A stretch of DNA of 34,811 nt from a virus. Taxonomy: Duplodnaviria; Heunggongvirae; Uroviricota; Caudoviricetes. Position numbers: made by a program. Each line of letters opens with the position of its first letter. Position 1 is the first letter of the stretch. Positions 30,001-33,000 of the stretch are shown here, one piece after another. The stretch lies in the IMG/VR virus record IMGVR_UViG_2526164665_000032, one strand, 5' to 3'.

Positions 30001-33000
30001 TGTCCTGAAGGGTGAACAGCGTCGGGTCAGTGGTAGTGCCCGGGTTTCCCTCAAGCGCCGTATCTGGCTCAGGGATGCCGGGCAGTGCTGTCTCTGTGGT
30101 CGTGTGGTTGACCTCTGTGACAGTGAACTCGATCACCGAATTGCACTTCAGTTCGGTGGTGGTAATGAGGAGACGAATCTCTGGACGCTCTGTACCGAAT
30201 GCCATCGCCAGAAGTCAGTCAGTGAAACGGCGAGTGGTATGCCGGACCCGACGCTGCCGGAGGTGTCCGGAGGTCATGGCAGGGCAGACGATATCATCGG
30301 ACTGTGACCCGCCCCGGGGGGGATCATCCGGCGAAAAAAACGATCGCCCCGGACACCGCCCCCCGTCTCATGCAGAGAAAAAATTCCTGTTTCAGGCCAG
30401 TTAACATGTTAACTGGCTGCCCGGGCATTTTTTCGGTTTTTATCTTTATTATTCAGTTTGTTGTGCGAAAAAAATGTTAACTGGCTTTTTCAGCAAATGT
30501 TAACCAGGCAGCAGTTAACATTTGCGGCATGAGACGCCGGGAAAAATGGGCTGAACCATACCCGGCTGAGTGCGTTATGGACCCGGGAGAGGCTGTGCTG
30601 ACAACGCAAAAACGAAAATTTGCGCTGGCGCTCATGTCCGGGAAAACAAACAGCGTCAGCCATTGCCGCCGGTTATTCGGCGAAGACCGCCAGGGTTAAA
30701 GGCTCGCAGCTGGCGAAAGATCCGGAGGTGCTCGCGTTTATAGCCCGTAAACAGTGCGAAACGGTGGAGGTGGATGAGGTTCCTGTTTACCGGCAGAAAA
30801 AATCAGAGCAGGAGGATAAACCCCGTCGCCGTGAGGTGGCTGCAATACCACAGCCGGACGAAAACAATCCGGAGATGCCACCGCCCGCGGTGATGTCTCA
30901 TGGTATTGAATATATGGAGGATGGTCTTCCCGATCCGGTGAAAGCTATGGGGCAGATCCTGGTGGAAAACCTCAGCATTGATCCGAAACTGGCACTGGAT
31001 GCGGCCTGGCGACTGGCGCAGTTCACACACCATAAAAAAGGCGATGCCGGTAAAAAATCGGCAAAAGGTGATGCCGCGAAAAAAGCGGCTAACCGTTTTG
31101 CGGTACCACCACCACCACGACTGGTGGTGAATAACGATAATGAGGGCAACGGATGATACCTGTATGGAGCACGGCCTGCCCGGACTGGGCAGAGCGCCTG
31201 AAAAAGGGGCTGTCGATTATTCCGGCTCCGATTTATCCGGACCAGGCCGCACATGCCCTGGCGATTTTTAAACAACTGCGGATTGTGGATGCACCGGGTA
31301 GCCCGACGTTCGGGGAGTCCTGTGCACCGTGGGTGTTTGACCTGGTGGCGGCTCTGTTTGGCTCCTACGATGCGCAGACCGGTGTCCGCCATATCAAGGA
31401 AGTGTTCATTCTGATACCCAAAAAAACAGCAAGTCCACACTGGCCGCCGGGATCATGATGACGGCGCTGTTACTGAACTGGCGGCAGGCGGCGGGTTACA
31501 CGATTCTGGCCCCGACTGTGGAGGTGGCAGCCAACGCCTTCAATCCTGCCAGGGATATGGTACGACGGGACGATGATCTGGATGACCTCTGTCAGGTGCA
31601 GACACATATCCGGACCATCACCCACCGGGTGACGGACACCACCCTGAAGGTGGTGGCAGCCGATCCGAATACGGTGTCCGGTATCAAGTCCGTGGGGACA
31701 CTGATTGATGAACTGTGGCTGTTTGGCAAGCAGTACAAGGCGGAAGACATGTTACGTGAAGCCATCGCGGGCTTGCCTCCCGCCCGGAAGGGTTTGTGGT
31801 GTATACGACCACCCAGTCGAATGAACCGCCAGCCGGGGTGTTCAGACAGAAACTGCAGTACGCCCGGGATGTGCGCGACGGCAAATTAATGATCCGCACT
31901 TTCTGCCGGTGATATTTGAACACCCTCCTGAAATGGTGGAAAGCGGGGCTCACCTGCTGATGGAAAACCTCGCCATGGTCAATCCGAATCTCGGCTATTC
32001 AGTGGATGAGGCCTTTCTGTACCGGGAGTACCGTAAAGCCCGGGAAGCCGGGGAAGAGCATTCCGGGGCTTCATGTCAAAACACGCCAATGTGGAAATTG
32101 GTCTTGCCCTGCGCTCTGACCGCTGGCGGGGGCTGATTTCTGGGAAGAGCAGGGCAGGCGCATCAGCCTGGACGATATCCTGCAGCGCGCTGATGTGGTG
32201 ACGGTGGGGATTGACGGCGGAGGGCTGGATGATCTGCTGGGGATGTTTGTGATTGGGCGTGACCGGGAGACCCGCGAATGGCTGGGCTGGGGCCATGCCT
32301 GGGCGCATGAAACCGCGGTGGTCCGACGGAAGAGCGAGGCGTCCCGGTTTCAGGATCTTGTTGCCTGTGGAGATATGACCATTGTCCGGCGTGTCGGGGA
32401 TGACACGGCGGAAGTGGCGGAGTATGTGCGTCGCATTCATGAGGCTGAGTTACTGGACCATATCGGTATTGACCCGTCAGGGGTGGGGCAGATTCTGGAT
32501 TCACTGGCGGAAGCCGGGATCCCCGACGGAATTGTGGTGGGGATAAGCCAGGGCTGGAAACTGGGCGGGGCCATTAAAACCACCGAGCGCAAACTGGCTG
32601 AAGGGGTGCTGGTGCATGGTGACCAGCCCCTGATGGCCTGGTGTGTCGGCAATGCCCGGGTGGAGCCTAAAGGTAACGCCATTCTTATCACCAAACAGGC
32701 CAGTGGACGGGGAAAAATTGACCCGCTGATGGCGCTGTTCAATGCGGTGTCCCTGATGTCCCTGAATCCGGAACCGAAAAAGAAAGAATATGCGGTTTTT
32801 TTCATATAACCCTGTTCACACTGTAACCATCACGAACCGCTCCGGCGGTTTTTTTATTTTCAGGAGGCTGATGTGACTCTTAAACGGGCCTGTTCCCTGC
32901 TGACGGTGAAATCCTTCAGTGAGGATGAACGGGTGATCACCGGGATTGCGTCAACGCCTTCTCCGGATCGGGATGGTGACATCCTGGAGCCGGAGGGCGC

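Follow-up and report, generated by a model that had tools for sequence, protein, structure and literature searches.

A GTTAAC repeat array beside the cohesive-end site of a Shiga toxin-type prophage as a candidate binding region for the small terminase

Why should five copies of the hexamer GTTAAC be crowded between the gene for an HNH endonuclease and terS, the gene for the small terminase (TerS), in a lambdoid Shiga toxin (Stx)-converting E. coli prophage of the Stx1/Stx2c type? The DNA in question, here called the window, is the whole 34,811-nt stretch of IMG/VR record IMGVR_UViG_2526164665_000032. An initial annotation of this DNA placed the copies in a 130-bp interval between the two genes and proposed that they belong to a cohesive-end (cos) site or bind terminase. 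The gap in fact measures 288 bp, from the HNH stop at 30307 to the terS start, the GTG at 30596. We consider it probable that this gap is a complete cos region in the style of HK97, and that the GTTAAC array provides the predicted TerS sites, equivalent to cosB of lambda. The motifs would then most likely be docking sites of the small terminase for the start of packaging. We predict TerS sites here because of the position of the array, the invariance of its cores, their retention in a satellite (L171), the concerted change of all sites in one relative (L212) and the exchange of the motif in other satellites.

The five cores start at 30400, 30408, 30476, 30499 and 30514, as first annotated, which corresponds to offsets of +34, +42, +110, +133 and +148 from the cut site described below. 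The array extends from +34 to +153, and its half-sites share the consensus AATGTTAACyrG. They are arranged as follows:

30396..30417, unstranded: proximal site pair, a 22-bp perfect palindrome GCCAGTTAACATGTTAACTGGC, with GTTAAC at +34 and +42
30418..30471, unstranded: A/T-rich spacer of 54 bp, with T-tracts and the IHF-like ATTCAGTTTGTTG at 30451-30463
30472..30485, plus strand: distal site C, AAATGTTAACTGGC, with GTTAAC at +110
30493..30525, unstranded: distal sites D and E, a split palindrome with 12-nt arms, GCAAATGTTAAC-N9-GTTAACATTTGC, with GTTAAC at +133 and +148

The isolated motif and the split palindrome with its N9 center stand as originally described. The first palindrome is perfect, as claimed, but 22 bp long rather than 20 bp. 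GTTAAC occurs only nine times in the other 34.7 kb of the window, and when 14 sites were placed at random, five cores fell within 120 bp in one of 200,000 placements. The 22-bp palindrome is the sole perfect palindrome of at least 16 bp in the window; the longest palindrome in 200 shuffles averaged 14.7 bp and reached 22 bp at most. From these clustering and palindrome statistics, the array exceeds chance expectation.

The position of the cut was approached through a close relative, the Stx1 phage Lys8385Vzw, for which Zhang et al. applied PhageTerm to reads from induced virions and reported a cos mechanism with 3' cohesive ends of 10 nt, CGCCCCCCCT (PMC7946995). The termini of its genome record (MT225100), read directly, have the end ...GGACACCGCCCCCCCT and the start CTCACGCAGAGAAAAAATTCC, in agreement with the published ends. 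The window is 93% identical to Lys8385Vzw from HNH to terS. By this equivalence we infer that the window is cut at CGCCCCCCGT, 30357-30366, and the left end of virion DNA would be 30367. This exact variant of the overhang is found in 19 Stx-type loci and 6 satellites. The cut therefore falls 31 bp 5' of the first palindrome, inside the C-run of the window, and the array lies on its packaging side, between cut and terS. The predicted site is outside 30397-30523, the region annotated as a cos candidate, yet within the HNH-terS gap to which cos had been assigned.

Around the cut we find a cos core, the elements of which are:

30316..30322, unstranded: G-run (G7), the outer element of the core, with at least five G, 28-29 nt 5' of GGACAC, in nearly all of 138 loci and in all classes
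30351..30356, unstranded: GGACAC block, invariant and abutting the cohesive end in the window, 20 Enterobacterales relatives and satellites (GGACAC being part of the pattern used to scan viral contigs for the core)
30357..30366, unstranded: cosN CGCCCCCCGT, the inferred 10-nt 3' cohesive end, by equivalence to Lys8385Vzw
30367..30388, unstranded: post-cleavage block CTCATGCAGAGAAAAAATTCCT, with an A-tract at +12 to +17, kept in every class whatever the N-domain of terS

The pattern scan of viral contigs for the core enlarged the set to 138 loci. The G-run, GGACAC and the downstream A-tract block frame the cut. G-run length ranges from 5 to 12 among the Stx-type loci, and as its position is kept in nearly all loci, the G-run belongs to the signal. 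The initial annotation had treated the G7 and C6 runs merely as error-prone, but both are conserved parts of the cos core. An A-tract is present at about +10 to +17 after the cut in nearly all 138 loci. In addition, whatever the class, the GTTA motif specific to it has its first copy starting at +33 to +35 in all of these loci.

Cleavage inside the GTTAAC palindromes, the primary reading of the initial annotation, would agree with the twofold symmetry common at nicking sites and with the HNH-terS gap as the correct location for cos. It is nonetheless extremely improbable, since the mapped end of the close relative falls upstream of the palindromes and since it is the cut block, not the palindromes, that is common to all 138 loci, including classes without any GTTAAC. 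The annotated region thus loses its proposed role in cleavage; its other proposed role, in terminase binding, draws support from the comparisons that follow.

An imperfect direct repeat was also observed on either side of the cut (TCATCCGGCGAAAAAA at 30324-30339 and TCATGCAGAGAAAAAA at 30368-30383, 81% identical with 44-bp spacing). The compact relatives described below carry a pair resembling it.

How strongly is the array itself conserved? An alignment of 63 Stx-type loci (33 distinct) has no variation in the 30 core columns, compared with variation in 61 of 205 other columns (Fisher p = 6e-5). The cores are also retained in an 11.7-kb integrative element (L171) that lies next to yejO; 17 of 5,426 complete E. 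coli genomes carry it in full. This element encodes an integrase, a D5-type primase, SSB, a PerC-like regulator, capsid protein E and decoration protein D. No terminase gene, and hence no terS, was found in this type of satellite (L171/L211). The cos region at the end of the element (10670-10925 of L171) is a diverged copy in which all five GTTAAC sites are present, at +34, +42, +110, +134 and +149. It agrees with the window at 30 of 30 core positions, at 69 of 105 positions in the remaining array (66%) and at 6 of the 22 bases past site E, and the similarity stops directly after site E. Retention of the cores would be expected of a satellite that depends on the terminase of its helper. The cos region of the same satellite type was also seen in L211 (NZ_CP145707.1, approximately 6000-6500).

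The history of the array became apparent from more distant phages. Scanning genome contigs with a single terS protein gave zero relatives and an alignment of terS was needed, with which we identified 20 Enterobacterales relatives that have a compact cos region. Its order is G7-8, approximately 29 nt, GGACAC, CGCGCCCCCT, CTCACGCACAGAAAAAATTCCCCTCTGGAGGGTGTAAAC and ATG TTA ACA GCG, the last being the terS start. The CCAGTTAACATGTTAACTGG of the window aligns with the compact GTGTAAACATGTTAACAG (GTTAACGTGTTAAC in some relatives), which is palindromic at 14/16 positions and has the terS start codon at its center. In 47 compact relatives a palindrome of the form GT[AT]AAC[AG]TGTTAAC overlaps with the start codon of terS. 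The terS start is at +40 in the compact relatives versus +230 in the window. In the Stx-type lineage about 190 bp separate the old from the present start, the three extra sites lie within these ~190 bp, and the real start of the window terS, GTG CTG ACA, has lost the motif. Between the segment 30497-30526, ATGTTAACCAGGCAGCAGTTAACATTTGCG, and the 5' codons of the ancestral terS, 22 of 30 positions agree (counted by eye), which makes local duplication a plausible origin for the region of sites D and E. The proximal palindrome is old, and the five-site array is lineage-specific.

These same observations, namely the overlap with the start codon in the compact relatives, the 22/30 match and the motif-free present start, would suit an account in which the extra GTTAAC copies are neutral relics of the ancestral terS start (GTAAAC ATG TTA ACA GCG), duplicated or displaced by about 190 bp. 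We regard this as improbable. Decay would be expected of relics, but no core column varies, against 30% of the other columns, and the cores persist in a satellite with diverged flanks. Furthermore, all five sites change in concert in L212, and the palindrome of the window is more perfect than the ancestral form. An origin by duplication and a present function are compatible with one another.

A relic open reading frame (ORF) from the ancestral terS ATG, MLTGCPGIFSVFIFIIQFVVRKKC (30405-30479, 24 codons, hydrophobic), is kept in phage 2851. We considered and rejected a small membrane protein as its product, as the ancestral Shine-Dalgarno sequence is lost and the frame stops after 4 codons in L171.

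If the array is an address, it should be possible to say which protein reads it. L212 has a terL, the gene for the large terminase (TerL), that is 97% identical to that of phage 2851 and an HNH gene 83% identical to that of the window. The N-domain of its terS is 85% identical, and the changes within the helix-turn-helix are A30E, T32S and V35C. In this locus all five half-sites read ATGTTTA[TC] in place of ATGTTAAC, giving GTTTAY cores at +34, +42, +108, +132 and +147. The palindrome is replaced by ATAAACATGTTTAT, site C by ATGTTTAT, and sites D and E by ATGTTTAC and GTAAACAT. Pieces of the spacer, TCTTTAT.ATTCA and GTTG (ATTCA-N5-GTTG), are retained in both L171 and L212 while other spacer sequence diverges.

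Two types of E. coli satellite encode a terS of their own, one with a primase and a capsid-like gene (L086/L087) and the other with AlpA and a location next to yejO (L088/L089). Both have the cut-site core in common with the Stx phages, followed by repeats of AAAAGTTACAC (GTTACAC), one type having them at +33 and +45 and the other having six within a gap of 228 nt. No HNH gene occurs near cos in the satellites carrying this altered motif. Satellite and phage terS are 49-55% identical over residues 1-55 and 64-76% identical over residues 110-175. For the terS of the compact relatives the corresponding values are 69-76% in the N-domain and 34-45% in the C-domain, and their motif stays GTTAAC/GTAAAC. 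The motif variant tracks identity in the N-domain and not in the C-domain, and therefore follows the N-domain. A fourth class, with the N-terminus MALTEKMKKFA..., has AAAAGTTAAAG at +35 and +47. The motif arrays of the satellites and of this fourth class are direct repeats with a period of 12-13 bp. The terS of the two satellite types (L086/L087 and L088/L089) is chimeric in appearance and resembles a route for redirecting a cos terminase.

Similar motifs occur inside terS itself. In most compact phages examined, V-N codons (GTTAAC/GTAAAC) are found at about +260 (~+262 in L003). The linker of satellite terS contains six K-V-T codon repeats (GTTAC) with a 12-bp period, at +233..+299 from the cut in L086, and the fourth-class linker contains K-L-K and K-V-K codons (GTTAAA), at +220..+280 in L105/L139. 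The linker peptides of terS seem to mirror the DNA motif of their own class, as putative binding sites written into the coding sequence.

These comparisons also bear on whether the palindromes are operators for a DUF3950 (YlcI/YnfO family) protein, the HNH protein or a host factor, regulating terS and the late genes or aiding cleavage without TerS contact. The sites are palindromic and 5' of a gene start, a DUF3950 gene stands beside HNH (29673-29900, minus strand), and a satellite without terS could obtain any helper protein in trans. However, the distance of the motif is fixed to the cut and not to the terS start, and promoter-like sites occur at chance level. We rejected each of three candidate readers of the motif: the DUF3950 protein, as no such gene was found adjoining HNH in L212 or near cos in L212 or the satellites; terL, as it is 97% identical in L212 where the motif differs; and HNH, as the altered-motif satellites lack it near cos while their adjoining terS has a divergent N-domain matching the altered motif. 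Operators of this kind are thus unlikely, if less so than neutral relics.

There is very little chance that the palindromes act in the late transcript as hairpins, in termination, processing or translation control before terS. They do fold as hairpins in the predicted structure, and one terminator-like site (CCGGGCATTTTTTCGG followed by a T-run) is present at 30421-30436. However, the folding z-score of the gap is -1.64, with 10 of 200 shuffles folding equally well, there is no Rfam match in 29600-31200, and terminator-like sites occur at chance frequency. The terminator-like stretch is not conserved in L171 and L212, while the GTTAAC positions are kept. Finally, the direct-repeat motifs of the satellites and of the fourth class (class IV) cannot form hairpins.

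The reading that remains probable, recognition by TerS, calls for a DNA-binding domain of a suitable kind. The initial annotation gave terS as P27-type. A Pfam scan of an intact homologue (E <= 0.01) returned only PF03592 Terminase_2 (E = 4.5e-8, residues 2-57), and no assignment to the HK97/P27 family (Terminase_4) was obtained. Against the PDB, a profile of the terS family matched the DNA-binding domain of SF6 G1P (4zc3, 3zqp and 2cmp, E = 4e-4 to 1.4e-3), and a single-sequence search with terS returned nothing significant. Judged from the profile match, the N-domain of terS is a helix-turn-helix DNA-binding domain homologous to that of SF6 G1P.

In our proposal, the G-run, GGACAC, the 10-nt overhang and the A-tract constitute a common core on which TerL and the HNH protein presumably act, and the GTTAAC array would confer specificity through recognition by TerS, with its N-terminal helix-turn-helix domain. 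A TerS oligomer would assemble on the proximal palindrome and the distal trio and would bend the A/T-rich 54-bp spacer between the two site groups, possibly together with IHF. With the DNA bent in this way, TerL and HNH would be held above the cut, at a distance of 31 bp, and packaging would then run to the right, into terS, terL and the head genes. We infer binding by TerS, the bend and this sequence of steps from sequence comparison, and a role for IHF in the spacer is possible but unsupported.

Several points weigh against this proposal. The ends were mapped in a relative, Lys8385Vzw, and by PhageTerm software rather than by run-off sequencing. The compared sequences are related, so that the conservation statistics overstate independence. 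The match of ATTCAGTTTGTTG to the IHF consensus has one mismatch, and such matches occur at chance frequency in the window, although ATTCA-N5-GTTG persists in both L171 and L212. Since the conserved A-tract (+10 to +17) is near the position of the HK97 TerS site, TerS could bind primarily at the A-tract, with the GTTAAC array as an accessory; by analogy with HK97, the A-tract may contact TerS. Finally, terS and terL are frameshifted in the window, and therefore the packaging system here may be inactive, or the assembly error-prone.

How does the region compare with packaging signals that are already understood? The cosB of lambda lies between the cut site and terS, and in the EcCICFT073/Rpp system a satellite keeps the cut site and its repeats are changed to suit a different DNA-binding domain (PMC6739421). 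Lambda cosB (R3-I1-R2-R1, with gpNu1 and IHF) is like the array described here in having short repeats of mixed orientation between cut and terS with an A/T-rich, bendable spacer between them, and in both cases satellites retain the cut site and alter the repeats. However, there is no sequence similarity and the arrays are not homologous. The window TerS belongs to Terminase_2 and that of lambda to the gpNu1 family, the overhangs of lambda are 5' and 12 nt whereas those reported for Lys8385Vzw are 3' and 10 nt, and the window system includes an HNH protein, with IHF unproven here. The satellites also differ from EcCICFT073 in that they would switch specificity with their own chimeric terS rather than with Rpp.

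HK97 has the same order of HNH, cos, terS, terL and portal, a 3' cohesive end of 10 nt (here as reported for Lys8385Vzw) and an A-tract just 3' of the cut. Its TerS binds +15 to +29, including the A-tract (PMC11331095). However, HK97 TerS is of another family, threads DNA through its ring and reads a single 15-bp site, whereas the window has an SF6-like helix-turn-helix TerS and five repeated half-sites at +34 to +153.

The SPP1/SF6 protein G1P (Terminase_2) has a homologous N-terminal helix-turn-helix DNA-binding domain. At pacL and pacR, SPP1 G1P recognizes several repeated boxes with bent DNA between them. SPP1 and SF6 differ in being headful (pac) packagers without defined cohesive ends and without an HNH partner. 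Headful packaging does not fit the present system, in which the relative has defined cohesive ends and the cos core is common to 138 loci.

Satellites of the SaPIbov5 type lack terS, carry a copy of the helper cos region and are packaged by the terminase and HNH protein of the helper, a staphylococcal phage. From its sequence alone, L171/L211 looks like an E. coli counterpart. The host and the sequences differ, and L171/L211 has its own capsid E and decoration D genes.

A broader reading, which we put forward tentatively and consider as a whole somewhat less likely to hold than to fail, is that an HNH-dependent cos terminase is directed by a programmable address code, written in the GTTA-core repeats. 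The phages and at least three kinds of satellite would have one cut site in common (G-run-N29-GGACAC-CGCNCCCCNT-A-tract), and specificity would be set only by the repeat variant, GTTAAC, GTTTAY, GTTACAC or GTTAAAG, each paired with the helix-turn-helix that the resident terS encodes. Among E. coli satellites, some would divert a Stx-type helper terminase by means of a chimeric terS that combines the helper C-domain with their own DNA-binding domain, and satellites would add further sites in their own terS linker codons (KVT, 12-bp period). If true, the address code would be an Rpp-independent route of hijacking, affecting the spread of Stx phages and satellites.

The cohesive end is already known, having been published for Lys8385Vzw. 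The GTTAAC array as a TerS address, together with its variants, appears to be new, in that it is not described in the searchable literature, and of the leads obtained, the satellite switch of specificity is the most novel. Stx1 and Stx2c phages of the window's type spread Shiga toxin genes, and the packaging signal governs which DNA, that of satellites and cos-bearing plasmids included, enters particles. Together, the cut site and the candidate TerS sites amount to a defined cos cassette for transduction assays. The natural series of TerS and motif variants offers a way to learn how, in a cos system, DNA is read by a terminase with an SF6-like helix-turn-helix, and also provides a lead on E. 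coli satellites that apparently parasitize Stx-type phages. The G- and C-runs are functional elements of cos, and annotators should not "correct" them as if they were errors.

The genes flanking the region are:

29673-29900, minus strand: DUF3950 (YlcI/YnfO family) gene, just 5' of HNH in Stx-type phages and EC958
29942..30307, plus strand: HNH endonuclease gene (Pfam PF01844, E = 2e-6), annotated as HNH endonuclease in phages 2851 and BP-4795
30596..31156, plus strand: terS (Terminase_2), with start and frame taken from phages 2851 and BP-4795, frameshifted by a 2-bp deletion near 30646
31153..32809, plus strand: terL, broken into several ORFs, the phage 2851 homologue of which carries PF03354 TerL_ATPase

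HNH is followed by the 288-bp gap, terS, terL and HK97-like head genes, the gene order seen in phages 2851 and BP-4795, and homology with phage 2851 gives GTG 30596 as the terS start. We found 94 phage records that match 29900-31200 of the window at 90-99.6% identity, among them Stx1a, Stx2c and Stx2a phages and including 2851, BP-4795, 1717 and YYZ-2008. The start of record PV189401 at terL was considered as a mapped end and rejected, being an arbitrary start.

Relative to 2851, BP-4795 and Lys8385Vzw, a single base is missing from the window near 30588, in the Shine-Dalgarno region of terS, and the deletion near 30646 changes GGGAAAAACAAAAC to GGGAAAACAAAC. The resulting frameshift is unique to the window (1 of 63 related loci). 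The terL and head genes, 31153-34811, are likewise broken into several ORFs. The breaks in terS, terL and the head genes suggest either under-calling of homopolymers in a long-read assembly or a decaying prophage.

Two further features of the locus were observed. An inverted repeat, CCCCCCGTCTCATGC at 30359-30373 and GCATGAGACGCCGGG at 30527-30541 (87% complementary), encloses the GTTAAC array and is absent from the satellite L171. In PPompW prophages, the lysis genes and HNH are gone between the Q-tRNA region and cos, and an ISEc20 element (IS110 family; 746-2204 of L214, LC567822.1) ends inside the G-run just 5' of the cut, at a position equivalent to ~30318 of the window.

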